64,000 bases of DNA, taken from contig JBIOTX010000044.1 of NCBI GenBank assembly GCA_044866315.1, positions 10,596 to 74,595 of the forward strand, in the 5' to 3' direction. Positions 2,023-15,021 of this stretch are shown here, piece by piece. Made by a program: the position numbers and the translations under genes. The notes under the pieces were generated by a model. The model did not search any database and was not told the origin of the DNA. It saw only the letters and a list, made by a program, of their open reading frames with translations. This stretch comes from Thermoanaerobaculia bacterium (GTDB lineage: Bacteria; Acidobacteriota; Thermoanaerobaculia; Gp7-AA8). Position 1 is the first letter of the stretch, and every line of letters begins with the position of its first letter.

Positions 2023-4197
2023 TCAACGCGTGGCGACGGACAGCTCTAATGGCTGGTCGGCGAGTCGCGGCCACCATCCCGTCGCAACCGTGCGATTGGG
2101 CGTGGCGGCAACCTCTCGAACAAAAAACCCGGCGTCCCGCGCCGGCTCGAGCAACATGATTTCACGGCCCATATCGAACAGTCGACGTGTTCGCCCGGAG
2201 GAAAGCTCAGCTTCCATGACGCTGGAGCCTCTGGCGAAGTACACATGTTTTCCGTCATCGCTCCACCGCACTCTCCAGCCGTCGCCGTCGATTGCCTGCT
2301 TCGCGAGTCCGTGGACAGGCGGAAAATTCGCGATATAGACGCTGTAATGCTCACCGCGTTTAGCGACGAACGCCACGCGACTTCCGTCCGGGGAGAAACG
2401 CGCCGATTCCCCCTCCTCGTCGGGCGTTACGACAAATCGCTCAACGCGCCGAGGGTCACCGACAGGCATGAACCACAAGCTGCCGTCGCGATTTTGCCAC
2501 CTCTCAAGAAGCAAGAAGCCGCCATCCGGCGATATGTCTCTCGGCGCAACAATGTCAGATGAGGAAAGAACGGTACGAGGCCGGCCTCCGCTCGCGGAAA
2601 CGTCGACCGCGTAGATGTTTGCCCAGCTCTTGCCGACGTCTGCGTAGTACACAGTGCGATCGTCAGGCGAGAAGACTGGCGAACTCGGTCGATCAGCGTT
2701 GGCAACGAGGCGAACTCGTTCCCTGCCGTCAAGCGGATAGAGCCACAGGCTCGTTCTATCCTTAACATCGCCCCGTGCGACCAGGACCAGTTGATCTGTA
2801 GTCCGGCCGACAGCAACGTAGCGTATATCCTCCGGGTCAGAAATCGTCGCCCGGATAGTTCCATCTACGCCAAGAAGGTAAAGCGGCGGAATATGAGGCG
2901 GCGGCGTCACCACGAGCGCTGCCTCCGAAACCGAAAACCCAGCCTCGCCGGACAGATGATCCGCCCATACGGGCGATGCCACTGGCCGCTCCGGCGCCGT
3001 AAACCGTAATTGGCGGATGTCGAACCGTCGTGCGAAAAGGGTTCGCTCGCGTACGTAGAGCAAGTGCCCGTTGGCATACTGGACGCCGGTTGCAATCGGG
3101 AAGAGCAACTGCGTTGCCCGCGAGCGAAGGGAATACACCGCCGCCAGTCGACTCACCGTCCCGTTCGGAGCCTTCCTCGTGATGGTGAAAAGGATGCGGT
3201 CATCATCAGGCAGGAAGAACGGCAGCGAGTGGGCAATTTCATCTGGACGTACCTTGGTCAGTGCTTCCTCCGCGCCAGAGTCCGTCACTCTCAGCAGTCC
3301 CCGGCGAGAGCCCAAAACGATCGTGTTGCGGCCGTTCACAGTGCCTTTCAGCGCTTCAACGATGTTCGCCACGAGTTCCGGCGCGCCGCCATCGATACCG
3401 ATCTTCACGAGCCCTTTCTTGCTGATGAAAAAGATTGACCGGCTGTCTACGTTCCAGAAGAAATCGGTATAGGGACCTTCACTTGCGGGCAGCGGCCGCG
3501 TTCTGCGATCAGTAACCGAGTGGATGAAGAGCATCTGCTTCTTCGAAGGAAGCGCACGTGCCAAAAACGCGATCTGCGAGCCATCCGGTGACAGCTCCCC
3601 TCCAAATGCGCGGTCATAGACGTGGGACGCCTCTGCGGGAAGATCGAAGGTGACCAGAGGCGACACGTTTGTGGGTGAAGCAGCCGAGTGCCAAAGGCCG
3701 ATGAGCAATGCTGCGGTCACGCCGAGCGCAACGAAGAGAAAAAGTAACGTCCAGAGCCGGGCCGAGGCAGTCCATGACTTAAGCCGCGACCCAATATGAG
3801 TTTCCATATCGAGTGATCGGCTGTCGTACCTCGCATCGAACGAGATGAGATCGGGCGGAACGTCGCCATCTGAATGGCTCTTCGGTTCCTCCTCGGTTAT
3901 TTGGAGCGCCGGTCCGTCGGATGTTGGTTGCGCGGCGGACGTCGAACGGTATCCGGCCTCGTATGCCCTTGCTGCCGCCCGGAAGTCCTCTTGGGTCAGA
4001 CTCAGTTCCGCGCACAGATCGCGCAGGTTCTCGACACGGGGGTGCCGCGGCCGAGGGAACCTCATCCAGTTCCGGACCGTACGGGGCGTAACGCGCAACT
4101 GGCGAGCGAGCACCTCCACTCGGAGACCCTGCTCCTCTAGCGTTCGTCGGAGTAACTCGGCTGCGCCCTCATTCCAAAAACCGACGAGACGGGTCAT
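2023..4197 (-). CDS. Single-pass transmembrane transcriptional regulator: N-terminal XRE-type HTH, one TM helix, periplasmic TolB-like (PD40) beta-propeller
   Basis: Track ORF 2023..4320; the likelier start is MTRLVGFW (cat at 4195-4197). HTH segment LRDLCAELSLTQEDFRAAARAY. TM helix WTLLFLFVALGVTAALLIGLW. Repeated PD40-like motifs (SPDGSQIAF, FSPDDRTVYY, ISPDGGFLLL, FSPDGSRVAF). Confidence 0.6.
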   Translation of the reverse strand: MTRLVGFWNEGAAELLRRTLEEQGLRVEVLARQLRVTPRTVRNWMRFPRPRHPRVENLRDLCAELSLTQEDFRAAARAYEAGYRSTSAAQPTSDGPALQITEEEPKSHSDGDVPPDLISFDARYDSRSLDMETHIGSRLKSWTASARLWTLLFLFVALGVTAALLIGLWHSAASPTNVSPLVTFDLPAEASHVYDRAFGGELSPDGSQIAFLARALPSKKQMLFIHSVTDRRTRPLPASEGPYTDFFWNVDSRSIFFISKKGLVKIGIDGGAPELVANIVEALKGTVNGRNTIVLGSRRGLLRVTDSGAEEALTKVRPDEIAHSLPFFLPDDDRILFTITRKAPNGTVSRLAAVYSLRSRATQLLFPIATGVQYANGHLLYVRERTLFARRFDIRQLRFTAPERPVASPVWADHLSGEAGFSVSEAALVVTPPPHIPPLYLLGVDGTIRATISDPEDIRYVAVGRTTDQLVLVARGDVKDRTSLWLYPLDGRERVRLVANADRPSSPVFSPDDRTVYYADVGKSWANIYAVDVSASGGRPRTVLSSSDIVAPRDISPDGGFLLLERWQNRDGSLWFMPVGDPRRVERFVVTPDEEGESARFSPDGSRVAFVAKRGEHYSVYIANFPPVHGLAKQAIDGDGWRVRWSDDGKHVYFARGSSVMEAELSSGRTRRLFDMGREIMLLEPARDAGFFVREVAATPNRTVATGWWPRLADQPLELSVATR

Positions 4198-4467
4198 GGC
4201 ATCTCTCGCAAGCTTTCCTGATGTTTCCGAACGTTTCCGTCGGCATTTCCGATCATCGGCTCGACGTGGAAGGAGTAATGGACGAGTTTGGAGTCTAGTA
4301 CGAGGTATGGAAGGACACAAAGCCGAACGTCAGGAGACGAGACTGCACGGATCGTACACCTACATTCAGACAGCCATTCCCTCGGTGCAGGCGCACCTTT
4401 CGTCGCCGACGTCGTTTAGTAGACAGGATGCTAAAGCATCCAGCGTGTGAGTAAAAAAAGGAGGAGC

Positions 4468-6168
4468 ATGAACTCCGAGCTGGAAGAGGCGCTCACGTCT
4501 GTTCGGATCGGCAACCACGAACGGGCAAAGGCTCACCTGAAGGCATCCGGCATCGAGATACCGCGAGGCTATGTGGACGAGCGGCCCACTACGATGGAAG
4601 ATGTCGAGCGGCTGCGAGCGGTCACGCTCGCGGCCGAAATCGCCGAACACGACGGCGCATACGACCGCGCAAAGGCTTACCTCGCGCCGTTTCAGGAGGC
4701 GATCACGCCCACGCTCGAGGAAGAGGCACGAGCGCAAACACCAGATGTCGTGTTCAGCTCGCGTAACTTGCGGTGGCAGATCGTCCGGCAAGAGTTGTAC
4801 TACCTGTGGCAACTCTCGGTGGCCTCGTATCGCGCCGGCGAGTACCAAGAGAGTAGGCGTCAACTGCAGATCGCGCTTCGACTCGCGGAGAAATTGCGGC
4901 CCGACGCTGAGGGGCTTCTCACGCAGCTGTACTATGGCGCCGCCAAGCTCGCCTTTCACGAATCGGACTTCAGCCGTTCGATCGAGATGTATCGTGCTTC
5001 ACTTTCCAAAGCTGCGGAGCGCATCAGCGAACGACAACATCGGAGCCAAGTTCGTCCTGTGGACAGGAGTGCGGCCCGCTACAACATCGGCAAGGCGCTC
5101 GCGCTTGGACTCGGACAGTGCATGCGCGAGCAGGGACGATTGGCAGAGGCGCGGACCGTGGTCATCGCCGGCCGCCTCCTTCTTGACCTAACGCCGGACA
5201 CGGTACTCAGACATCATGCGCGCATGTTGCTTGGCTCGATCGAGCGTGGTTCGGCAGGCGAGGATAATGTGGAACTTTTGACGTCCGCGCGCGAAAACCT
5301 AAATGCATGTGTCGCCTTTTTTGACGAACATGGTGGAGATCCGTGGTTCCGTGCGCACTACGAGCTTGCCCTCGCTATGATGCAACAGCGCCAGACCGCG
5401 GAAGCTCGCCGCGAAATTACTACTATGCTGCACAAGGCACAAACAGTGCGGCCACCCAAAGCCAAGTGGATCGCGAACGCACAGATCGCGCTTTCTCGAA
5501 TTGAGCGGCGGGCGGGAAATCATGTAAGCGCAGTGGCCGCGGCTCGCACCGGCTTACAGGTAGCTTCGTGCGCCATGATTGATCGCATCGCGCGCCGTGC
5601 ACGCACGACGTTGGCAATTGCACTCGGCGACATGGCGATGAGCAACAATCCGATTGAGATTGATCGTCTCGATGAAGTCGAGAGCGAGCTCAAAAACGCG
5701 CGTCGGGCTTTGGACGATGGAGATACTCGAAACCAAGTTATGCTGCTTCTCGTCGGTGCCCGCGTACGAATCGCGCGCGGAGATATGGCGGAGGCGCAGC
5801 GCCAATATGATGACTACAGGAAAATCGGCCGATCAGTGGAGGGCGGTCGAGTCAGGGAGATGGCGGAAGAAGTTCGTCGCGCGCTAGAACGCGGCACAAC
5901 GCTCTTTTGCGCTCCGGTAGACCAGCCTGAGGCTGATTTCGATTACGCCCGCAACATTGCAGCCTTCGAGCAATATCTTCTTCAAAAAGTGCAGCGCGTG
6001 ATGCCGAACGCACGCCCGGGAGCTCTCGCAGGGAAGCTCAGGATGTCAAAGAAGTCGCTGAAGTCTTTGGAAAGGAGAGTCGTTGATGCTGGATCGTCTC
6101 GAAGCGATACACACGGTGAGTTCACGCTCGAGGCCACGGCTAGTAATCGAGCCGATCCTGCATGTTAA
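4468..6168 (+). CDS. TPR-like helical repeat protein with C-terminal Fis-type HTH-like tail (putative regulator)
   Basis: Strong SD aaggagg lies 5 nt before ATG 4468, and the track start 4447 would sit inside that SD. The protein is all-alpha with TPR-like repeats. The C-terminal segment ALAGKLRMSKKSLKSLERR resembles the HTH_8 (Fis/NtrC C-terminal) pattern. Confidence 0.5.
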   Translation: MNSELEEALTSVRIGNHERAKAHLKASGIEIPRGYVDERPTTMEDVERLRAVTLAAEIAEHDGAYDRAKAYLAPFQEAITPTLEEEARAQTPDVVFSSRNLRWQIVRQELYYLWQLSVASYRAGEYQESRRQLQIALRLAEKLRPDAEGLLTQLYYGAAKLAFHESDFSRSIEMYRASLSKAAERISERQHRSQVRPVDRSAARYNIGKALALGLGQCMREQGRLAEARTVVIAGRLLLDLTPDTVLRHHARMLLGSIERGSAGEDNVELLTSARENLNACVAFFDEHGGDPWFRAHYELALAMMQQRQTAEARREITTMLHKAQTVRPPKAKWIANAQIALSRIERRAGNHVSAVAAARTGLQVASCAMIDRIARRARTTLAIALGDMAMSNNPIEIDRLDEVESELKNARRALDDGDTRNQVMLLLVGARVRIARGDMAEAQRQYDDYRKIGRSVEGGRVREMAEEVRRALERGTTLFCAPVDQPEADFDYARNIAAFEQYLLQKVQRVMPNARPGALAGKLRMSKKSLKSLERRVVDAGSSRSDTHGEFTLEATASNRADPAC

Positions 6169-6458: not shown

Positions 6459-7259
6459 CTAAGTTTTTGAAAACGCTGCCACTTCGTCGCTGCCGCCGAG
6501 GAGAGGCTTCTGGAAAAAGGAAGTGGTGTTCCTTCGAAGGAAGTCATGAAGAGCGGTGAAACGTCCCTCTGCTTCTGCGGAGCACGGAAGGGTCGTTACT
6601 AAGATTGGTGGTTCAGCTTGCCGGACGCACTCATTGATTGCCAATGCTCTTCGCTCCGAGACGGTGAACACGATCCCGAGCGCGGGCGCGTCCGCCGCCC
6701 ACTCCGCGAGCTGCAGGCGAAGGCGCTCCAGTTTCGGCTGAAAGACGCCACGAATCGATTCGCCGCCGAGATCGACTTCGCACGCGAGCACGCCGCCGCG
6801 AATTCCATCCGGTTGCCAGATGCAAAGGAAGTCCGGAACAACCGGTACCCTCTTACCCAAGCGCCTTTGCAGCGTCCACGCGGGAAGCGCTACGTCGGGA
6901 ACTGGTGACAGCCGCGCGGCAGCCACCCGAAGGTCGTTTATCCAGAGGAGATGAGCGAGATCTTTGAGTGCTGTCGGACGACGCGGCGCGAAGAGATCCG
7001 TCGATCGAACGCCGGAGGACACGAGGAAGTCACGACCCGCAGGCGTAAGTCGCAGCCGATTCACGCCGGTACGATTCAGCCGCTCCACTGCGATCAGTTT
7101 GCGCGCCGTCCACCGCTTCACGAAGCGCGAAACCACCGTCGGCGCGCGGCCGGCGAATACCGACGCGTGCAATTGATACTGAGCGACCTCGTAGCCTCTG
7201 CCGATGAAAGCCAGTCCTTCGAGGTCGCGTCCGCTGAGTCGAAGCGTACTAGTCGTCAT
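6459..7259 (-). CDS. Winged-helix protein, possibly replication-relaxation family or PD-(D/E)xK-like; function unknown
   Basis: N-terminal wHTH-like region (LSGRDLEGLAFIGRGYEVAQYQL...LIAVERLNRTGVNRLRLTPAGRDFL). Mid-region VPDFLCIW...VLACEVDLGGES hints at nuclease-like acidic residues. It is the last gene of an operon that also holds the MTase pseudogene. Confidence 0.45.
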   Translation of the reverse strand: MTTSTLRLSGRDLEGLAFIGRGYEVAQYQLHASVFAGRAPTVVSRFVKRWTARKLIAVERLNRTGVNRLRLTPAGRDFLVSSGVRSTDLFAPRRPTALKDLAHLLWINDLRVAAARLSPVPDVALPAWTLQRRLGKRVPVVPDFLCIWQPDGIRGGVLACEVDLGGESIRGVFQPKLERLRLQLAEWAADAPALGIVFTVSERRALAINECVRQAEPPILVTTLPCSAEAEGRFTALHDFLRRNTTSFFQKPLLGGSDEVAAFSKT

Positions 7260-7346
7260 CGACTCGTGTTAACCGCGGCAATACACGCATCCACATCGGT
7301 CCGGGAACAGAAGCCGATTCTGGCGAATCGAGCGAATCCGGGGGGT

Positions 7347-8375
7347 TCACTCCGCGCCATGTCGTTCGCGCCGCGAGCGCGCGCGCCGAGATCGACGCGC
7401 CGGAGCCGGGCGGCGGGATGCGACGCAGGTGTTGTTTGTGGCGAGCACTTGCGCCTCGCGACTCGCTCGAGCGATGCGTGAAGCCGCGATCGAGAAGTAG
7501 TGCGCGTCGAGCTCGATGCCCACATAGCGGCCGCCGAGGAGCTTCGCCGCAACGCATGTCGTCCCCGATCCCAGGAAAGGATCGAGGACGCAATCACCGT
7601 TCGTGGTGAAGAGTTGGATGAAGAAGAGTGGCAAGGCGAGCGTGAAGGCCGCGCTGCGTCCCCGATTCTGGCATTCGGTCGCGACATGCAGTACGTTCGT
7701 CGGATACACGAGCTCTCGCCCGACACACGCCTTAAGCCGGCGTCCGAAGCCGCTTCCGCTCGCTGAAGCCGTCCGGGTGTTATCCGCGGCGCTCAGGTGC
7801 GCCAGCCGCTTGCGCGTCGCAAGTGCCGCTGGTACCCGCACCGCGTCCTGGTACATCGCGAAATGGGGCACCTTGTTGAATTGCAGCAGCCGCTCCCACG
7901 CGTTGCGGAGTCGGTTTCGCCAACGTCCGGGAAAGCAGTTGCGCTTGTGCCAAATGAACTCCTCCGTCCAGAGCCATCCTTGCGCCGGAGGGCAAGGATG
8001 AGTTCGAGGACATACGGGTGCCGTTCGCCACGCGCGGCGTGCTCGCGGATGTTCAAGATGAAGGTTCCGGTGGGCTTCAGGACGCGCTTTAGCTCATGGG
8101 GCGATGGGCAAGAACCAGGCGATGTAGTCCTCGGCCTTCACGCCGCCGTACGTTGCCTTTCGCTGTTCGGCGTAGGGCGGCGAGGTGAAGACGAGATCGA
8201 CCGTCTCGTCTCGCAGTTCACGGAGGCGCCGCGCGCAATCGCCGATAAGGAGCGTCTGATCCATCTTGGTCGTCGTGCCGCGAAGCCAAGCGGCGCTCCG
8301 CACGCGACTCAACGTACGACTAAAGGCAACGACGGACCAGACGCGCTGGTCCCAGACAGGAAATGTGCCGTTCAA
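7347..8375 (-). pseudogene. N4/N6 (beta-class, pfam01555-like) DNA methyltransferase disrupted by two frameshifts
   Basis: Motif IV DLVFTSPPY sits in ORF 8094..8375. The continuation ELKRVLKPTGTFILNI is in a second frame (track ORF 7793..8056). The remainder, WLWTEEFIWHKRNCFPGRW...HVATECQNRG...LALPLFFIQ...DPFLGSGTT (motif I), is in the third frame and ends at 7347. So two frame changes occur, near 8094 and near 8030. Confidence 0.6.
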
Positions 8376-8482
8376 GAGAATTACGACTGGCGAACGTTTT
8401 ACCCGCCACAGACTGATGGAGGTGCGGGCGACGAGTGGCCGCCGTCCGCGTGGTCCCTGCGCTTACGCCGCAGAGGGGCGTG

Positions 8483-8728
8483 TCATGGAGCAACTACCGT
8501 CATCCGGTTTTGAACGCGAAGGGCGACTTTCCCCGGGATCCGAATGTTGCGGTACGTTCGCCTGCCGGTCACCTGTATCCGAAAGATCAGGGTACCCGGC
8601 TCCCGGACGAAGAGGCGCCGGATTGATTCGGGTGACATGTTCCAGAGAAAAGCCAATTCCTTCACCGAATAGCAGTAATTCGGATCGAGGATGGACGTTT
8701 GTTCCAAGCCGAACCTCCATACGGGCAA
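8483..8728 (-). CDS. Excisionase/MerR-like HTH_17 DNA-binding protein
   Basis: YSVKELAFLWNMSPESIRRLFVREPGTLIF...RRTYRNIRIPGKVAL matches the Xis/HTH_17 pattern (helix-turn-helix followed by R..RIP). A longer overlapping ORF, 8463..8996, sits in another frame and has no recognisable features. Confidence 0.5.
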   Translation of the reverse strand: MPVWRFGLEQTSILDPNYCYSVKELAFLWNMSPESIRRLFVREPGTLIFRIQVTGRRTYRNIRIPGKVALRVQNRMTVVAP

Positions 8729-9111
8729 GTTCGGTGTCCCCGCTTACCCCGATCCGAGCGGGTGAGTCCGGGCCACTCCGGACGCAGAAAGAATAGCTGA
8801 GTTGTGGCAGCGTTTCACACGTCCTGCCCGGCTCATGGCCGTCTTGTGAAACCGCGCGATGGGTAAGCTGCCGAGGAAGCGCCGCGATTTCCTCGCCGAT
8901 CGCGCCTTGCGCGAGTTTCGCGATGAAGATGTTCCCCTCCTCCATCATGGCCCCGAAAGTCGATCCTGTTCTCGCGCTGCACCACCATCTGGCCACGATC
9001 TCGGCCAGAGAACGAATCGACCCGTGTGACGATCCGCCCCCCCCCCGGCGGGCGGCTGTGGGGGCGGCCGTGGGGCTCGGGAGTGGTGTCTGCGGTGGAC
9101 TTGTCTACAGA

Positions 9112-9675
9112 TCAACTGTAGCTTTGTACGAGCCGAAACATCTGATCCGACAAATCCTCTGGGTCACCGACATTCAACAAGACATGGTCGAAGAGTGAAA
9201 TGTTGTCCACATAATAACGAAACACAACCCACACCTTGTTCTTGCGAATTCGCGTTTCATCTTGATCGGTCGCGCCGATCAGTATTTGATTTGACTCGGT
9301 AGATTCCGGGTCTGGCGGCGCGTATAGATAGACGAGCTTCATGAGCGGGCCGAGGGCCGCCTTTAACGCAGGGATCGCCGACTTCATATTGCTGCAGATC
9401 AGCATGCAATGTCGACCTAACCGCAATGCAGCGTAGATGTCCTCAGTCGAGATGCCATAATGTGACTTATAGTTGCCGTATACCACATGGTAACGTTTTC
9501 GATCAATTCGTCTAACGTGAATCATCTCGGGACCGTCAGTCGTCTTGCGTCTTCGTGTGGTCACCTTCGGGATGACGATCATGTGTCGCTCGCCCATGTC
9601 TCGGACGGATCGCAAGAGAACCCCCTTGCCCGCACCGGAGGCCGCGACAATGACGAAAAGCGTTGGTTGCCGCAT
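9112..9675 (-). CDS. Guanylate-kinase-like P-loop kinase paralog (GK-like 1)
   Basis: Walker A VIVAASGAGKGVLL; NMP-binding-like KVTTRRRKTTDGPEMIHV; Y..YG.S (YGNYKSHYGIST); C-terminal NISLFDHVLLN (GMPK-like FDyvivN). Confidence 0.6.
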   Translation of the reverse strand: MRQPTLFVIVAASGAGKGVLLRSVRDMGERHMIVIPKVTTRRRKTTDGPEMIHVRRIDRKRYHVVYGNYKSHYGISTEDIYAALRLGRHCMLICSNMKSAIPALKAALGPLMKLVYLYAPPDPESTESNQILIGATDQDETRIRKNKVWVVFRYYVDNISLFDHVLLNVGDPEDLSDQMFRLVQSYS

Positions 9676-9682
9676 GTCCGCG

Positions 9683-10525
9683 CTACTCCGTTAGGTCTTC
9701 CTTTACGACGATCCGTTGAAAACGATCAGGCCGCCGCATAACAATACCGCGCATCTGGCGAAGCAGCTCAAGTCTGCTTCTCCGATGATTGATGATCACG
9801 TGGTCAAACAGTTCGATATTCTCGATATACCTACGCAAAATCACCTTTGCCTTTTCCGCGCGGCGAAGGATCTGTTCCTTGTCAATACCGCCTGTGGCAT
9901 CTGTGGCGGCGCGAGCAGTCTGCAACTGTTCAACGTCAATGGATTCAAGCGGTGAGAACACAAAGATAAAAACTGCTTGCTGCCCGAACATCGAACGCAA
10001 CTCTCGCAGGACTCTAATGTCGTTGACGATCGCAACGGGGGAGATGCCAGCGCATAGCAGCGAAATCAGCTCTGACGATGCCAACCCATAACGCACATTG
10101 TACTGTTCGTAAATCAGATCATAGCGTTGCGGAAAAGTGTTCGCACGTTTGGCTAGGCTCTCGATTTCTCGCAAAGCCTTACCGCGGCGACGCTCAGGGA
10201 GCTTCGCGACGAGCGCCTTCTTGATCTTTTGCAGCTCCTCGTGCGGCAGGGGTCCTCGCACCGTCAGCGTTCCAACACTGGAGTCGTAGGAATAGAACGC
10301 CGCATGCTTCTGGACAAAGTCGAGGAGCGCGGCTGTGCTTGGCAGCGGTGCGGCATTGGTATGCTCGACAGGTAAAATTTCGCTGCCGTCATCTCTTCGA
10401 CGACGCCGGGTCGTAATTTTCGGGACCACTTGGCACGTGAGGCCGCGAATACGTGGCAAAACGGCCAGCAGCGTGGATTTCCCCGATCCGGGAGCGCCCG
10501 TGAGGATGTATAGCCGACGCGCCAC
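9683..10525 (-). CDS. Guanylate-kinase-like P-loop kinase paralog with C-terminal extension (GK-like 2)
   Basis: LTGAPGSGKSTLL; KITTRRRRRDDGSEILPV; YNVRYGLAS; NIELFDHVIIN. A C-terminal tail of about 80 aa follows. A 7-nt gap separates it from GK-like 1. Confidence 0.6.
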   Translation of the reverse strand: MARRLYILTGAPGSGKSTLLAVLPRIRGLTCQVVPKITTRRRRRDDGSEILPVEHTNAAPLPSTAALLDFVQKHAAFYSYDSSVGTLTVRGPLPHEELQKIKKALVAKLPERRRGKALREIESLAKRANTFPQRYDLIYEQYNVRYGLASSELISLLCAGISPVAIVNDIRVLRELRSMFGQQAVFIFVFSPLESIDVEQLQTARAATDATGGIDKEQILRRAEKAKVILRRYIENIELFDHVIINHRRSRLELLRQMRGIVMRRPDRFQRIVVKEDLTE

Positions 10526-11752
10526 TCAGCCCCCAAACACGAATCGTACCGCCTGCGATACCTCCTCTAGGACTTCGCGAAGCGGTCCGGACATGACGTA
10601 GCGGAGATCGGGTGACGCGAGAAATCCGGATGTAGATGAGGCGCCTGGTTCAAGCGCTGGACTGCGATCAATTTCGGACTTTAGATCCGTGACGCGCACA
10701 AGGCGAAACTGAGAGTTCTTGAGGTTTTCGACGCGCAGATCCCTGTTTGCAATGAAGAGGTAGATATCGGCGATCACTCTGAGCCGCTTGACTCGATCTG
10801 TGAAATAGCGCGGCGTATCAAGCTGCAGCTGGTCACGAAGGCTGAAGTAGGCCCATTCGTTACCCTTAAAACCTCGAATCTCCTCAAGCGGCCGTCGGCC
10901 TCGTTTGTCGGGCCGCCAGTCACCCATGTAGATCACGTTCGCCTCACTCTCCGTGAAGTGAGCCATGCTCTCCTTATTCAGCTCGTCTTCAAATAATTCT
11001 TCGATCAGCTCACGCACCGCCGTTCGGGCGCTCGTCAGTTCTCTGCTCCAGTCAACGTGGCCGCCAACCGATTTATCCCACATCCCACGGTTGTCCTTCG
11101 CATTCTGGGCGCGTTGATGTATCAAGAGATTGCCGGCCCGGTCAAAAATGAAATCCCAAATAACGTACTGATGATAATCGGTGTCGTAGAAACAACCTCT
11201 CGGAAAGAGTCCCCGCGGCGCCCGTTCCTGATCGTAGAGCTCAATGACTTCAGCATCGCGTGCAGCGGTGAACCGAGCGCCATACCCGGCACGCAGATAC
11301 TCTTCATAGTGAACAACGGATCTGTGCCACGGATGTCGTTCGTCAATTTCTTCATAGAGATCAGCGTCAGCGAGCGTGTCCACGACGGGCACGCAGTAGA
11401 ATCGGCTGTCGAAGCGGGCGAGATTCAACGTGAGGGGCGCGTAGGCATTTCGAATGTCGATCCGCTCCTTGGCGGCCGCCGTAAAGTTATCGGCGAGCTC
11501 GTGAAAGAGGTCGCGACGGAAACGTAGCTCGCGAAAACTCAGCCGCTGTTCGGCGTCTGCTGTATCGAGACTTAGCGAACGACGAAAGAGTTCGTCGTCA
11601 GACTCGCAGAGAATCAACACCGAGGCTTTCGTGGCGCGTAGGTGCTGTGAGAAACGCTCAAGCGTTGACGCTGAGGCAACGTGAAGCGGCAGAACACCGA
11701 CCAGCGTCACCTGTTCCGTTGCGTTCGACAAGCAGTTCCACAGATCAAGCAT
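10526..11752 (-). CDS. Nudix-hydrolase-domain protein with N- and C-terminal extensions
   Basis: Nudix-box-like RGMWDKSVGGHVDWSRELTSARTAVRELIEELFEDE (GG..E...A.REl.EE pattern, with one-residue insertions relative to canonical GX5EX7REUXEEXGU). The probable start is MLDLWNCL, giving an 8-nt overlap with the kinase gene stop; the track ORF extends to 11833. Confidence 0.55.
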   Translation of the reverse strand: MLDLWNCLSNATEQVTLVGVLPLHVASASTLERFSQHLRATKASVLILCESDDELFRRSLSLDTADAEQRLSFRELRFRRDLFHELADNFTAAAKERIDIRNAYAPLTLNLARFDSRFYCVPVVDTLADADLYEEIDERHPWHRSVVHYEEYLRAGYGARFTAARDAEVIELYDQERAPRGLFPRGCFYDTDYHQYVIWDFIFDRAGNLLIHQRAQNAKDNRGMWDKSVGGHVDWSRELTSARTAVRELIEELFEDELNKESMAHFTESEANVIYMGDWRPDKRGRRPLEEIRGFKGNEWAYFSLRDQLQLDTPRYFTDRVKRLRVIADIYLFIANRDLRVENLKNSQFRLVRVTDLKSEIDRSPALEPGASSTSGFLASPDLRYVMSGPLREVLEEVSQAVRFVFGG

Positions 11753-13781
11753 TCGCGCTCGCCTCTGGCATTGTTTGAATGACGAAGTGAAGGACTTTGG
11801 CGACAGCATCCTCGAGTGTCGCAGGATGCTCATTCCAGGTCACGAGCGGATATGCCATCCGCATTCTGCTCTTGTTCGCCATGATGTACTGCACGTCCGC
11901 ACGCATTTCAGCAATGCGCCGCCGTGCATCGTCGACATGAAGGCCCCGGCTGAACATCCGCCGTTCCAGCTCATCGGGCCGAGCGAGTATCAGGATTGGA
12001 ATGGCGGCGACCCCGGCACGCTCGAAGGCTGAGGTCGCCGCGTCGAGGCGGGTGAACTCGGAAAAGATGCAGAAACGTACCGGATCGCCAGAAGGTCCCA
12101 CTGTGTCCGCTCCGAATGCGTACTTGTTCCCGTATTTTGTGTAACTCATGATGAGTCGCTCATCCCTCACCCACTTCTCGAACTCGACGGGATCTAATTG
12201 GCGTTGATACTCGAGCCGGCCCGGAATCGTGACTGTGGTCGGCTGCTCCATAGGTCGAAGGTCACGTGTACTGTATTTTGTGATGCAGTCGGCACGAATG
12301 CCCTTCGACAGCAGGCGGGGAATGACATCGCCGATAATCCGGTCCTTCCCGGCTGCAGACGGACCCGATACAACGTACAGCCTTGGGCGACTGTCAGTAG
12401 GATGGGGAATCCTAGTGTGACGTCGATCCACAACCGGCGATAGGATGGGATCATACGTGGCTTCGAGCCACTGCCGCCAGCGGGCGAATGCGACCGCGAC
12501 CATTTCCGCCGCCGACGCGGCGCCTTGGAGTAGATCATGATGGCCAGGTGTGGAACGAGCCAGCAACGTTGCGGCTTCGCACAGCGACATAGCATCGCTA
12601 TAGAGCCATTCGATCTGGGTGTCAGAGGGTGCGGGATCAACCAAGCTCAATGTAATGCGGAGATGCTCCAGCGCTTGCCCCATGTCTCTGGCGGCAGGAC
12701 CTACCACGCGCTGCACATTGTCTGCGACAACCACGAGCGCTCGAAGCGCGCTAATTGCGTCGGCGGCGCGGCGATCGGCACTGAACCGTTCAACGCTGCG
12801 CAGGAGCATCTCAAGTTCTTGTGCAGGGCCGGACGCGGGCTGTAAATCGTTGATGAAGGCTGGGGGCACAGCAATCGCGATGGGTTTCGTCCGAAGCAGG
12901 AGATCGAGTACTTCGGCAGCCCGCGTCGGCCGTTTGGTGGGGTCCTGTTGCAAACATTGGTGAAGCGTCTGCTGCCATTCGAGAGGCAGCGTCTTTAGTT
13001 CGTCGGGCAGTGGTGCTTTTCCAAGAATCGCATCGACGGTTTCCGCTTCGGTTGTTTTTCGGAATGGATGCACACCTGTCGTCGCAAGAAATATCAACAC
13101 TCCGAGCGCCCAAATATCTGATGCCATGGTTGCTTCTTCCCGGCGTACTTGCTCGGGTGCCATGTAGGCGAGCGTACCAAGCCATTGACCGGGCATGCTG
13201 ATAGGCGATTCACTTGGTTTTCTGGCGCCAGTGAATCGTGCTAAACCGAAATCCATGATTTTGGGAGCGGGAGGATCTCCTACGATCATCACGTTCTCAG
13301 GCTTAAAGTCGCGGTGCGTGATGCCCACTCTATGAATCTCATCAAGACCAGCGGCGATCGGCAGGAGAAGGCGCAATGCTCGATCTGCCGATAGTGGCCC
13401 CGTCTCATGTAGGTGGCGAGCTAACGTAACACCTTCAAGGAATTCCATAGTGTAGAACGTCTTATCGTCACTTAAGTGAAAAACTTTACAAACGTTTGGA
13501 TGAGTAACGTTTTTTGCTGCGCGCACCTCGCGCGCAAAACGCCGAATGAGATCCGGCCGGACAAGCAGATCGCGGCTTAAGGCCTTCAGCGCAATGCGCT
13601 CACTCTCCGCGTCGTCGTACGCTTCGTATACTTCGCCCATCCCACCCGCTCCTACGAAACTCACGATCTTGTACCGCTTCGCTAGGACTTGCCCAGGCGT
13701 AAATCGGTGGACGGGAATGGTATCCACGGCAGTCCCTGAGCGTCTTCTGGCACGAGCGCCGGGCCGTTCTTTCTTCGCCAT
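11745..13781 (-). CDS. Ser/Thr protein kinase fused to a C-terminal guanylate-kinase-like P-loop domain
   Basis: Hanks kinase motifs: VAIK-like ALKAL, HRDFKPENVMI, DFGLAR, APE (MAPEQ). A helical middle region follows. The C-terminal segment LYVVSGPSAAGKDRII...KYSTRDLRPMEQ...YTKYGNKYAF is a GMPK-like fold. Confidence 0.75.
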   Translation of the reverse strand: MAKKERPGARARRRSGTAVDTIPVHRFTPGQVLAKRYKIVSFVGAGGMGEVYEAYDDAESERIALKALSRDLLVRPDLIRRFAREVRAAKNVTHPNVCKVFHLSDDKTFYTMEFLEGVTLARHLHETGPLSADRALRLLLPIAAGLDEIHRVGITHRDFKPENVMIVGDPPAPKIMDFGLARFTGARKPSESPISMPGQWLGTLAYMAPEQVRREEATMASDIWALGVLIFLATTGVHPFRKTTEAETVDAILGKAPLPDELKTLPLEWQQTLHQCLQQDPTKRPTRAAEVLDLLLRTKPIAIAVPPAFINDLQPASGPAQELEMLLRSVERFSADRRAADAISALRALVVVADNVQRVVGPAARDMGQALEHLRITLSLVDPAPSDTQIEWLYSDAMSLCEAATLLARSTPGHHDLLQGAASAAEMVAVAFARWRQWLEATYDPILSPVVDRRHTRIPHPTDSRPRLYVVSGPSAAGKDRIIGDVIPRLLSKGIRADCITKYSTRDLRPMEQPTTVTIPGRLEYQRQLDPVEFEKWVRDERLIMSYTKYGNKYAFGADTVGPSGDPVRFCIFSEFTRLDAATSAFERAGVAAIPILILARPDELERRMFSRGLHVDDARRRIAEMRADVQYIMANKSRMRMAYPLVTWNEHPATLEDAVAKVLHFVIQTMPEASANA

Positions 13782-14003
13782 TCCGATATCCGAGCCTTGA
13801 GATTATCCATCGGCCGGGTCAACTCCGGTCCGAAGAATCCGTGCCACACCAAGGGTTATTTAGAGCTAAGTTACGAGACCGAGTCGATTCACAAAGTTCG
13901 TGAGTCATATTCTACTAAAGGAGTGACAAAAACGGTCGGATCCCTACCCGTGTGAACAACCCAGGACATCGTTTCATTGCGGGGCACTCCGTCGCCGTGC
14001 ATC

Positions 14004-14039
14004 TCCGAGTTGACGTTATTGAGGGTTGTCGTCAACTCG
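14004..14039. promoter_or_regulatory. Palindromic operator-like site CCGAGTTGACG-N14-CGTCAACTCGG, about 240 bp upstream of the kinase operon start
   Basis: Perfect 11-bp inverted arms with a 14-nt spacer. A near-identical site is present at 24298..24333. Confidence 0.4.
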
Positions 14040-15021
14040 GCGATCGAGCCATCGCCAACCACCACACCGCGGTCGAGTGATCGCATTGCTGGCCAGCTCG
14101 TCATGACAGACTGAACGGATGCCGCAAACGCCGGGCCTTCCACAGGCTCGACAGAGGTGTTTCCGGTGTTAGTGTTGAGTTGTCGACCACACCGCAACTC
14201 CACCTTATGTGGCGAGACTTGGCTCCAGACCTTCTTCGACAGCGCTATATAATTGAAGATACAACGCAGGAATCGTCAAACCGGCGGGTATTAAGGCGTA
14301 CCTGTCGGGCCTTGCTAGTGTGGCAGAGATGGAAATACTCCCGGTCCGTTTGCTTATTCTGCACATGAATGGGCTACGGTGGGTGGGTGCACGGGAAAAC
14401 ATCGGGCAGCCACGTCTACAGCTACCCAACCACCCCCGCCGCTCTTCACTGCTGATGTTTATACATGCAAACGCTGCTCCGTTACTGACGTAGTTCAGTT
14501 CACGCACGAATATTTCGACGCAGTTGAAATTGTGTGGAGGACGATTCCTACCTGAATCAGCGGGGCGCTTCATGCGGGATGTGATTGATGAGTACGAGGA
14601 AGCGCGAAGAGTGGCGGCGGAGCTTCGCGGTGACTACGAGATCATGTTCAACGACGAGCACAAGCACTTCACGCATCGATTGGCCGTTCTAGTCTCGCTG
14701 CTGCTCGACCGACGGTCATAAGAGCCACGTCGAAGGCGCATCGGTCAATCATGATCGCCTCCAAACGCGATGATTGCGCTCGGTCGTAGGTCCCGGTGCA
14801 TGCACGATTGACCGTGGCTTGAGTCGGCTCTGCTCGACGCCACTGAAGTGGTGGCGATGAAATTGGCGGTGTGCCGTCGTGACGCGGGAACGGCGCCGGC
14901 GTGGGACCCTGCACGGGCAACTTGCGCAGATTAAAGCTGCACGACAGGCCGTATAACCTCGACTTCGATGTCGAAACAAAGCAGCCACTATTCAGTACTA
15001 ACCCCCGCCGGGCGGCGTTCG

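Follow-up and report, generated by a model that had tools for sequence, protein, structure and literature searches.

The window analysed here, a 64,000-nt stretch of contig JBIOTX010000044.1 from a Thermoanaerobaculia bacterium, carries on its minus strand a four-gene operon that encodes a Ser/Thr kinase fused to a guanylate-kinase-like (GK-like) domain, a two-domain Nudix protein and two further GK-like kinases. We analysed the operon with a list of open reading frames (ORFs), domain libraries and a base-by-base reading of the gene junctions, and give all its positions in the numbering of the whole window. In related loci, ORFs were taken by a longest-ORF procedure and domains were mapped with iterated profile searches. 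The relatives found in this way share a Nudix and GK-like core surrounded by exchangeable modules of immune type, and the operon is discussed below as a candidate conflict cassette.

The four genes and their products

All four ORFs are intact, lie on the minus strand and occupy the coordinates that an earlier note on this DNA had assigned to them. GK-like proteins and domains are referred to by class, B being the first GK after the Nudix gene, C the second and A a GK fused to other domains. The genes and their domains are as follows.

11745-13781, minus strand: gene 1, Ser/Thr kinase, helical linker and GK-like domain A, 678 aa (ORF)
12909-13673, minus strand: Hanks-type kinase domain of gene 1 with an intact catalytic set (Pkinase match and motifs)
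12417-12884, minus strand: helical domain of gene 1, ~155 aa, between the kinase and GK-A, kept before GK-A in related loci L091, L016 and L020
11748-12416, minus strand: GK-like domain A of gene 1, with P-loop GPSAAGKD as in PhnN, KYSTRDLRP and lid arginines (sequence profiles)
10526-11752, minus strand: gene 2, phospholipase D-like (PLD-like) domain and Nudix hydrolase, 408 aa, from the ATG at 11752 (ORF)
11258-11752, minus strand: N-terminal PLD-like domain of gene 2, aa 1-165, lacking the HKD motif, with invariant G19, E50 and D63
10529-11257, minus strand: Nudix domain of gene 2, IDI/YfcD-like branch, with invariant R247-E248-x2-E251-E252 and the IDI catalytic Cys replaced by Gly
9683-10525, minus strand: gene 3, GK-like kinase B, 280 aa, GTG start (ORF, class B profile)
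9112-9675, minus strand: gene 4, GK-like kinase C, 187 aa (ORF)

The genes are tightly packed. The stop codon of the kinase fusion gene (TGA, 11747-11745) lies within the Nudix gene, the ATG of which occupies 11752-11750, so that the two overlap by 8 nt. The Nudix stop codon (10528-10526) abuts the GTG start of GK-B (10525-10523) with a gap of 0 nt, and 7 nt separate the end of GK-B (9683) from the start of GK-C (9675). Read base by base, the three junctions are exactly those that had been described for the operon.

The product of gene 1 begins with a Hanks-type Ser/Thr kinase domain, which matches Pkinase (PF00069) over residues 37-291 with 160.8 bits against a cut-off of 31.7 (E 6e-47) and contains the G-loop (residues 44-51), Lys66, HRD (156-158), DFG (177-179) and APE (208-210). 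The motifs by which the kinase and GK-A had originally been recognized are all in place: HRDFKPEN at residues 156-163, DFGLAR at 177-182, APE at 208-210, GPSAAGKD at 473-480 and KYSTRDLRP at 502-510. Generic kinase models alone match this domain in PADLOC and NCBIfam, all far under the family cut-offs. The helical domain that follows has no sequence match in Pfam, PHROG or the PDB, and its relatives were detected within the cassette family alone. The C-terminal part (residues 459-625) gives weak, sub-threshold matches to PhnN and gmk.

The product of gene 2 has two parts, of which the earlier note had correctly seen the Nudix box, located at residues 230-254, and had overlooked the 165-residue N-terminal PLD-like domain. 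To judge from the fusions described below, this domain probably serves the family as one of its two adaptors. The Nudix domain scores 25.4 bits against a Pfam cut-off of 21.1 and combines the fold of the Nudix superfamily (PF00293) with its metal-binding REx2EE motif. As the motif is invariant across the family, in 31 relatives, the protein should be a hydrolase. An AlphaFold model of the protein calculated from 31 homologs has a pLDDT of 91. The PLD-like domain is covered by no Pfam model and has no sequence relative in the PDB; a single sub-threshold match to Pfam NARF (E 0.015) was not used. Membership of the phospholipase D superfamily, which combines the PLD fold with an HxK(x)4D motif, was rejected, the HKD motif being absent. 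Type 1 isopentenyl pyrophosphate (IPP) isomerase (IDI) has the catalytic residues Cys67 and Glu116 and the metal ligands His25, His32 and His69 (E. coli numbering). This identity was also rejected for the Nudix protein: Gly stands in the place of Cys67 and Tyr in that of His25, His69 (His232 here) alone is confirmed as retained, the alignment being ambiguous at His32, and the NCBIfam IPP isomerase model gives 23 bits against a cut-off of 127. Relative to the IDI/YfcD branch, the window protein has a true REx2EE motif, which is absent from IDI, and the PLD-like N-terminal domain is an additional feature.

The GK fold is confirmed for the GK-like domains. GK-C passes the Pfam Guanylate_kin cut-off (26.7 versus 25.2 bits) and GK-B has only sub-threshold matches to gmk and PhnN. 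The motifs reported for these proteins were located, namely GAPGSGKST and KITTRRRRRDDGSE in GK-B and ASGAGKG and KVTTRRRKTTDGPE in GK-C, together with NIELFDHV and NISLFDHV. In a coarse comparison with E. coli Gmk, PhnN, Adk, Cmk and Tmk, the paralogs match the Gmk/PhnN branch and not Adk, Cmk or Tmk. All three classes keep the Walker A Lys (K479 of GK-A, K16 of GK-B and K17 of GK-C in the window), the K-x-T/S-T-R-x-x-R acceptor loop, the Y-G motif and the lid arginines. The P-loop has the PhnN-like GKD form in the class A protein of the window and in most class C proteins, and an invariant GKG in the subfamily of class C to which the window belongs. GK-B carries an insert of ~85 residues (roughly residues 50-130) that is absent from its 190-residue orthologs.

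None of these proteins is a housekeeping enzyme by the usual measures. The three GK-like sequences score 15.8, 29.7 and 20.1 bits with the gmk equivalog model TIGR03263 (cut-off 160) and do not retain the guanine-binding residues, so that identity with Gmk was rejected. PhnN was likewise set aside, as TIGR02322 gives 20.1 bits for GK-A and for GK-C (cut-off 156), no phn genes lie nearby and the GKD P-loop is the only resemblance. The paralogs fall instead into three distinct classes specific to the cassette, with scores of 208-254 bits for a profile of the own class and 64-124 bits across classes (for class B, 238 bits versus 124 for C and 68 for A). The original view that three paralogs unlike housekeeping gmk are present here is thus upheld.

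A scan around the operon for promoters and terminators gave no signal exceeding shuffled expectation, and searches of the same surroundings for regulatory RNAs, a tRNA integration site and att repeats found none. The ~1.2 kb between the start of the operon and dapD (13782-15021) holds only short unsupported ORFs and is without an Rfam match. Within it, at 13950-13937 on the minus strand, a terminator-like hairpin would stop upstream transcription just ahead of the operon. At the other end, ~70 nt past the GK-C stop, lies a run of ten C (9037-9046), read as ten G in the coding orientation of the operon; the tract may be prone to slippage, or it may be an artefact of the assembly.

Core, modules and mobility of the cassette family

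A word-based search of 5.8 billion proteins returned 33 members of the family to which the Nudix protein of the window belongs, an exhaustive profile search of 1.84 billion representatives returned 102 clusters at E <= 1e-30, and a scan of 185,579 species genomes yielded 54 full- or near-full-length loci (L011-L064). Their hosts span more than ten phyla in a patchy distribution and include Anaerolineae, Ignavibacteriales, Acidobacteriota, Gammaproteobacteria, Bacteroidota, Clostridia, Erysipelotrichales, Planctomycetota, Verrucomicrobiota, Treponema, Omnitrophota and Methanosarcina. A GK-like gene follows the Nudix gene directly in 47 of 55 non-redundant loci, with a median gap of ~1 nt. Of the remaining eight, two show 400-480 nt between the Nudix and GK genes, three break off at a contig end and three are archaeal and without GK genes. 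The two GKs that accompany the Nudix protein are either separate genes of ~190-200 residues each or fusions with two to four GK-like segments. On the evidence of this gene order, the invariant core is the Nudix protein plus two GKs. The full set of class A GK with helical domain, Nudix protein, B and C recurs in a soil metagenome contig (L091, Nudix protein 64% identical) and in metagenome-assembled genomes of Anaerohalosphaeraceae (L016) and Flavobacteriaceae (L020). Because it does so, the objection that the set might not be conserved as a unit, which the earlier note had itself anticipated, fails, and conservation of the unit extends across phyla. In L054, L055 and L056, from Methanosarcina and related archaea, PLD-like-Nudix homologs occur without an adjacent GK-like gene.

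The Ser/Thr kinase, which had been counted as a constituent of the system, is not conserved. The nearest relative of the gene 1 product (P0045) is the same protein minus the kinase domain, and for the C-terminal half the sole close relative is a kinase-less protein of 366 residues, preceded by a protein with two transmembrane (TM) segments. The only other kinase-bearing variant found in the family (P0048) has a second Ser/Thr kinase, 31% identical to that of the window, fused to the Nudix protein and followed by two GK genes. Judging from these domain layouts, the kinase has been recruited twice independently, on different subunits, and the window kinase is a lineage-specific add-on. In L091, the closest operon relative, a 265-residue protein with two predicted TM helices (3784-4581 of that locus) precedes the kinase-less class A gene, and a small multi-TM ORF lies upstream in L016 (5752-6078). 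These membrane proteins may be modules that substitute for the kinase.

The variable modules follow a simple scheme, in which paralogs of the core domains (a third GK or a second PLD-like domain) are, by their domain composition, fused to immune-type modules around the fixed core. Class A GKs are linked to an NDT/TIR-like domain of 135-170 residues with a PNVYYELGYA motif in 18 loci, to a cytidine/dCMP deaminase in three and to the helical domain in the subgroup of the window. The NDT/TIR-like domain has a weak match to Nuc_deoxyrib_tr and matches the PADLOC CBASS TIR effector with E 3e-12; the GK-deaminase proteins are not matched by the PADLOC dCTP-deaminase models or by known depletion models. 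The effector-linked PLD-like domain is a divergent copy at the C-terminus of its partner domain, which is GT4-conflict in six genome loci and three metagenome loci, TIR in four loci (two above the Pfam cut-off), SIR2_2 in three (ThsA-like similarity, E 1e-14) and HD-CE in one. An hhalign comparison shows that the PLD-like domain of the core and its effector-linked counterpart share homology from end to end (probability 77%, E 2e-5), and a metagenome scan seeded with the effector-linked domain gave five loci, with the core Nudix gene immediately next in all three that were informative. About half of the loci add a domain of N-glycosidase type (TIR, SIR2 or NDT-like).

Other modules are attached to the Nudix protein itself: a STAND ATPase with TPR in L011, L013 and L014, and with nSTAND2 in P0047; TPR alone in P0051; and, in L001 and L006, a helix-turn-helix (HTH) domain on a second copy with a degenerate Nudix box, which suggests a ligand-sensing regulator. 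Stand-alone distant relatives place a CAP12/Pycsar-type TIR or an EAD7 domain ahead of a PLD-like-Nudix unit and have no kinases. One such fusion lies amid transposases (L101, 8001-9704) and another adjoins a two-component system (L099, 155-1717).

Several further observations concern the proteins around the core. The TIR and PLD-like protein of L019 (1408-2625) is aligned by the PADLOC model TIR-TM (PDLC03016, E 8e-19) over residues 7-316, well into the PLD-like domain, and such proteins may therefore already be present, unrecognized, in a PADLOC effector family. Four unrelated loci have a small canonical Nudix gene, of 141-154 residues, near the cassette (L025, 6499-6963, PF00293 E 1e-22; L028, 6429-7016; L031, 11234-11644; L091, 2846-3271); it may provide the system with a second hydrolase or be there by chance. 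A family of ~200 residues occurs directly downstream of the GK genes in L022 (2686-3291), L052 (4117-4422), L053 (11382-12002) and L058 (11735-12337); it may be a further component, and the two members scanned (L022 and L053) have no Pfam match. In two Firmicutes loci (L036, 2364-6640; L038, 13504-15294) large paralogous proteins flank the cassette, one of them with an RyR domain (PF02026, E 1e-7).

Both the window and the related loci bear signs of horizontal transfer. Next to the operon lies the following feature, which is outside the system.

6459-8728, minus strand: mobile-element remnant (Pfam, PHROG)

It comprises an intact Replic_Relax gene (6459-7259) and an N6/N4 DNA methyltransferase split over two frames (7347-7871 and 8094-8375), in agreement with the decayed methyltransferase first reported here. 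The neighbouring 'HTH' gene exists as an ORF of 81 residues (8483-8728); its assignment is less secure, as the product is weakly excisionase-like (PHROG E 0.007) and has no Pfam match. An integrase, a tRNA and flanking direct repeats were sought at the remnant without success. The GC content is 55-57% over 8-15 kb, an island of ~8 kb, versus 60-63% outside. Elsewhere, L001 and others lie on DNA resembling an integrative and conjugative element (ICE), with a relaxase, a TraG-like coupling protein, ArdA, Fic and an integrase, the cassette of L001 adjoining ArdA; other loci stand beside SymE and large helicases or amid transposases. Among the 129 nearest flanking genes of the non-redundant bacterial loci no Pfam family occurs more than twice, which indicates that the cassette moves as a unit. 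A few of the neighbours are known defence genes, namely MADS mad2 (three times), a type I methyltransferase, SoFic, PD-Lambda-2_B, AriA and two PADLOC candidate families. The family was not found in 2.9 million viral contigs (IMG/VR), 50,697 phage genomes (INPHARED) or 72,556 plasmids (PLSDB), and a phage or plasmid origin was rejected for want of any relative in these collections.

The conflict reading and its alternatives

The immune-type modules, the mobility and the conservation as a unit support the original idea of a dedicated accessory unit. In our composite reading, to which we assign a probability of about one half, the operon is a rare, horizontally mobile conflict cassette, which probably counters phages or plasmids through abortive infection. 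That the core is fixed, that the active sites of all four enzymes are intact and that the genes stand in this order together point to a short series of reactions. The core would consist of three enzymes in pathway order. The PLD-like-Nudix protein would bind and cleave a pyrophosphate-linked nucleotide compound, most likely one related to NAD+/ADP-ribose or another nucleotide-sugar, with the help of its PLD-like domain, the fold of which binds sugars in TrmB. The Gmk/PhnN-like kinases B and C, of an enzyme type whose known members transfer phosphate to a phosphate acceptor, would then use ATP to re-phosphorylate the resulting phosphomonoesters. The outcome might be a non-canonical nucleotide that serves as an alarm signal or antimetabolite, a drain of the precursor and of ATP, or both. 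The class A GK or the second PLD-like domain would act as a docking or ligand-binding adaptor for the variable modules, since the presence of GK and PLD-like paralogs on these modules suggests docking to the core, sharing of a ligand or both. The simplest role for the window kinase is that of a regulatory input or a further output, in which, on activation, it would phosphorylate host, phage or system proteins. Its fusions with STAND/TPR and EAD7 give the Nudix protein the position that effectors occupy in other conflict systems. As to the substrate, the N-glycosidase domains in about half of the loci, together with the stand-alone TIR-PLD-like-Nudix protein, point to NAD+/ADP-ribose, and the alternative of a ribose- or ADP-ribose-derived metabolite, which the earlier note had raised, gains weight from the same protein and from the TIR and SIR2 fusions.

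A number of points weigh against this reading. The GK-C of the window has Gly at the Ser/Thr/Asp position of Walker A, and to judge from this substitution its activity is uncertain. Conserved positions differ between the PLD-like subfamily of the core and the effector-linked one, a pattern that would fit better with pairing of the two domains than with binding of a shared ligand. The NAD+/ADP-ribose idea draws on fusion partners found elsewhere, not in the window operon, which has no classical toxic effector and only the kinase, and L016 and L020 have no effector of any kind, so that the core must either do without an effector or have its output elsewhere. The pyrophosphatase and the kinases of one operon could also simply counteract one another. 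Finally, the neighbouring defence genes come from a sample of loci and are no more than suggestive of a defence setting.

A more specific form of the conflict reading is that the cassette represents a new class of immune pathway, in which the Nudix protein opens an NAD+/ADP-ribose-derived or other nucleotide-sugar molecule and the kinases build from it a linear phosphoribosyl-nucleotide messenger or antimetabolite that is read or channelled through the kinase-like and PLD-like adaptor domains on the TIR, SIR2, HD, deaminase, glycosyltransferase or protein-kinase modules. The proposed chemistry is reminiscent of the pRib-AMP and pRib-ADP signals of plant TIR immunity. We regard this form as tentative, with the odds rather against it as it stands.

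The nearest competitor is a strict second-messenger system, in which GK-B and GK-C make a linear phosphorylated nucleotide signal, the PLD-like domains and GK-A are its receptors on the effectors (TIR, SIR2, HD, deaminase or kinase) and the Nudix domain is the off-switch that breaks it down. In its favour, the cassette has a fixed core with swappable outputs, the PLD-like domain stands C-terminal to SIR2, TIR, HD and GT4 modules just as SLOG, SAVED and STING do in Thoeris and CBASS effectors, and the HTH fused to the degenerate Nudix paralog resembles a ligand-sensing regulator. We nevertheless consider it unlikely. GK-A keeps all of its catalytic residues and so is not a dead sensor, the two PLD-like subfamilies differ in their conserved residues, the Nudix protein bears STAND/TPR and EAD7 in the manner of an effector, and several loci have no separate effector at all.

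The cassette might instead act by direct depletion, running a futile cycle on NAD+/ADP-ribose, phosphoribosyl pyrophosphate (PRPP) or (d)NTPs that burns ATP; the fused N-glycosidase, deaminase or HD modules would make the loss irreversible and the kinase would sense infection and activate the enzymes. Most partner domains (TIR, SIR2, NDT-like, deaminase and HD) do degrade or alter nucleotides or NAD+, and the stand-alone TIR-PLD-like-Nudix proteins manage without a GK. The PhnN-type GKD P-loop of GK-A, and of GK-C in most loci, would also fit, and some Nudix enzymes hydrolyse PRPP to ribose 1,5-bisphosphate, the substrate of PhnN. Three conserved and distinct kinase classes are hard to justify on these terms, however, and the known depletion defences (dCTP deaminase and dGTPase) are single proteins, with PADLOC dCTP-deaminase models that fail to recognize the GK-deaminase proteins. 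We judge depletion as the sole principle to be quite improbable.

Still less credible is a toxin-antitoxin or addiction module, in which the GK kinases would produce a toxic phosphorylated compound, much as zeta toxins act on UDP-GlcNAc, and the hydrolase encoded upstream would remove it. The overlapping or abutting order with a putative antidote gene first is like that of toxin-antitoxin operons and the cassette does lie in mobile-element DNA, but the match of GK-C to Zeta_toxin (E 0.08), at 12.8 bits against a cut-off of 22.3, is below any threshold. Such a module would also leave the STAND/TPR and EAD7 fusions and the range of effectors without an account, and there are always two and usually three distinct kinases.

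Counter-defence or salvage, by which a mobile element would rebuild nucleotides or NAD+ precursors destroyed by host immunity, has very little to recommend it. The cassette is carried on ICE-like DNA beside ArdA in L001, a Nudix protein with PhnN-like kinases could recycle ADP-ribose or ribose phosphates, and phage pathways that reconstitute NAD+ from ADP-ribose are known; a salvage module would need the very reverse of a link to STAND sensors and to TIR and SIR2 domains, which consume NAD+, and the viral, phage and plasmid collections searched above contain no copy of the family.

Finally, ordinary nucleotide or phosphonate metabolism, with extra gmk/PhnN copies and a MutT-like sanitiser that happen to lie together, can practically be dismissed: weak gmk/PhnN similarity and dapD/dapF/lysA ~1.2 kb from the operon speak for it, whereas the scores lie 5-10x under the NCBIfam gmk/PhnN cut-offs, the family is extremely rare and patchy with no conserved housekeeping neighbourhood, and the operon is of lower GC than its flanks with mobile-element remnants alongside.

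Should the conflict cassette prove to be a defence system, its core chemistry would be one that no described system uses, namely a Nudix hydrolase with three NMP-kinase-like enzymes, and two new adaptor domains, the HKD-less PLD-like domain and the GK, would couple familiar effectors to that core. The cassette could reveal a new immune nucleotide or an irreversible route of NAD+ or nucleotide depletion, and it offers a bacterial setting for the processing of TIR products by Nudix proteins and kinases, an open question in plant immunity. With ~100 clusters in more than ten phyla and two cultured gut isolates that carry it, experiments are feasible. Cultured strains with relatives of the operon are Merdimonas faecis BR31 (L043, with SIR2-PLD-like, Nudix and two GKs) and Otoolea muris DSM 111138 (L059).

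Comparison with known systems

The claim that no described system has this make-up agrees with our searches. The core Nudix protein and GK-C have no match in PADLOC-DB v2 and GK-B has only P-loop-level matches, so that a known defence system was rejected for the core. Literature searches combining Nudix, guanylate kinase/PhnN, defence and conflict gave no description of the cassette, although a 2015 survey of nucleotide-centric systems may hold an earlier mention.

At the level of single proteins, the GKs share with Gmk and PhnN the P-loop, the T-T-R-x-x-R loop and the lid arginines, and the GKD variant of PhnN is found in GK-A and most GK-C proteins; they differ in scoring far under the cut-offs, in not retaining the guanine-binding residues and in having no phn operon. 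The window kinase has an active Hanks-type domain in common with the defence Ser/Thr kinases Stk2, PD-T4-6 and MADS Mad6, its best PADLOC match being PD-T4-6 (231 bits), but the likeness is confined to the generic kinase domain and those systems have no Nudix or GK partners.

Depletion defences of the dCTP deaminase/AvcD type combine a P-loop kinase-like domain with a deaminase. A similar layout, GK with cytidine/dCMP deaminase, stands beside the core in three loci, and a nucleotide-centred theme is common to both. Here the deaminase is optional and always accompanied by the Nudix protein and two GKs, and the window has a protein kinase in its place.

Kongming (KomABC) reportedly uses base-modified nucleotide signalling triggered by phage nucleotide kinases (10.1101/2024.12.20.629578). 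Nucleotide-kinase activity is central there and the messenger linear, and both features would be shared with the cassette; the kinase is phage-borne there, whereas three kinases are encoded by the host or element here, and the components are non-homologous, the window operon having no adenosine deaminase or SIR2-HAM1 pair. A survey of NTP-dependent conflict systems (Kaur et al., 2020, eLife; PMC7159879) lists Nudix proteins, S/T kinases and glycosyltransferases among the effectors. Building blocks of those systems, namely nSTAND2 or STAND with TPR, EAD7 and GT4-conflict, occur fused to the present family, and a cassette of Nudix with GK-like kinases does not appear in the text of the survey as searched (PMC7159879). 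The window operon itself has no STAND, vWA or EAD component.

Thoeris, CBASS and Pycsar offer parallels in design. A fixed enzymatic core with swappable effectors and a patchy, mobile distribution is common to them and to the cassette, the SIR2 of the cassette is similar to ThsA (E 1e-14) and its TIR to CBASS and Pycsar effectors (E 3e-12; PF10137, E 4e-28), and in both cases an extra non-catalytic domain is attached to the effectors. The attached domain is PLD-like or GK in the cassette and not SLOG, SAVED, STING or cNMP-binding, and the core consists of a Nudix protein and Gmk/PhnN-like kinases without a CD-NTase, cyclase or ThsB-type synthase. No synthase or sensor of these systems was found in the window or in the domain maps and the Pfam and PADLOC scans of the related loci. 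In its logic and in some of its effector domains the cassette resembles Thoeris, CBASS, Pycsar and the nucleotide-depletion defences, but it has none of their defining synthases or sensors, and its core of a Nudix protein with GK-like kinases is unprecedented.

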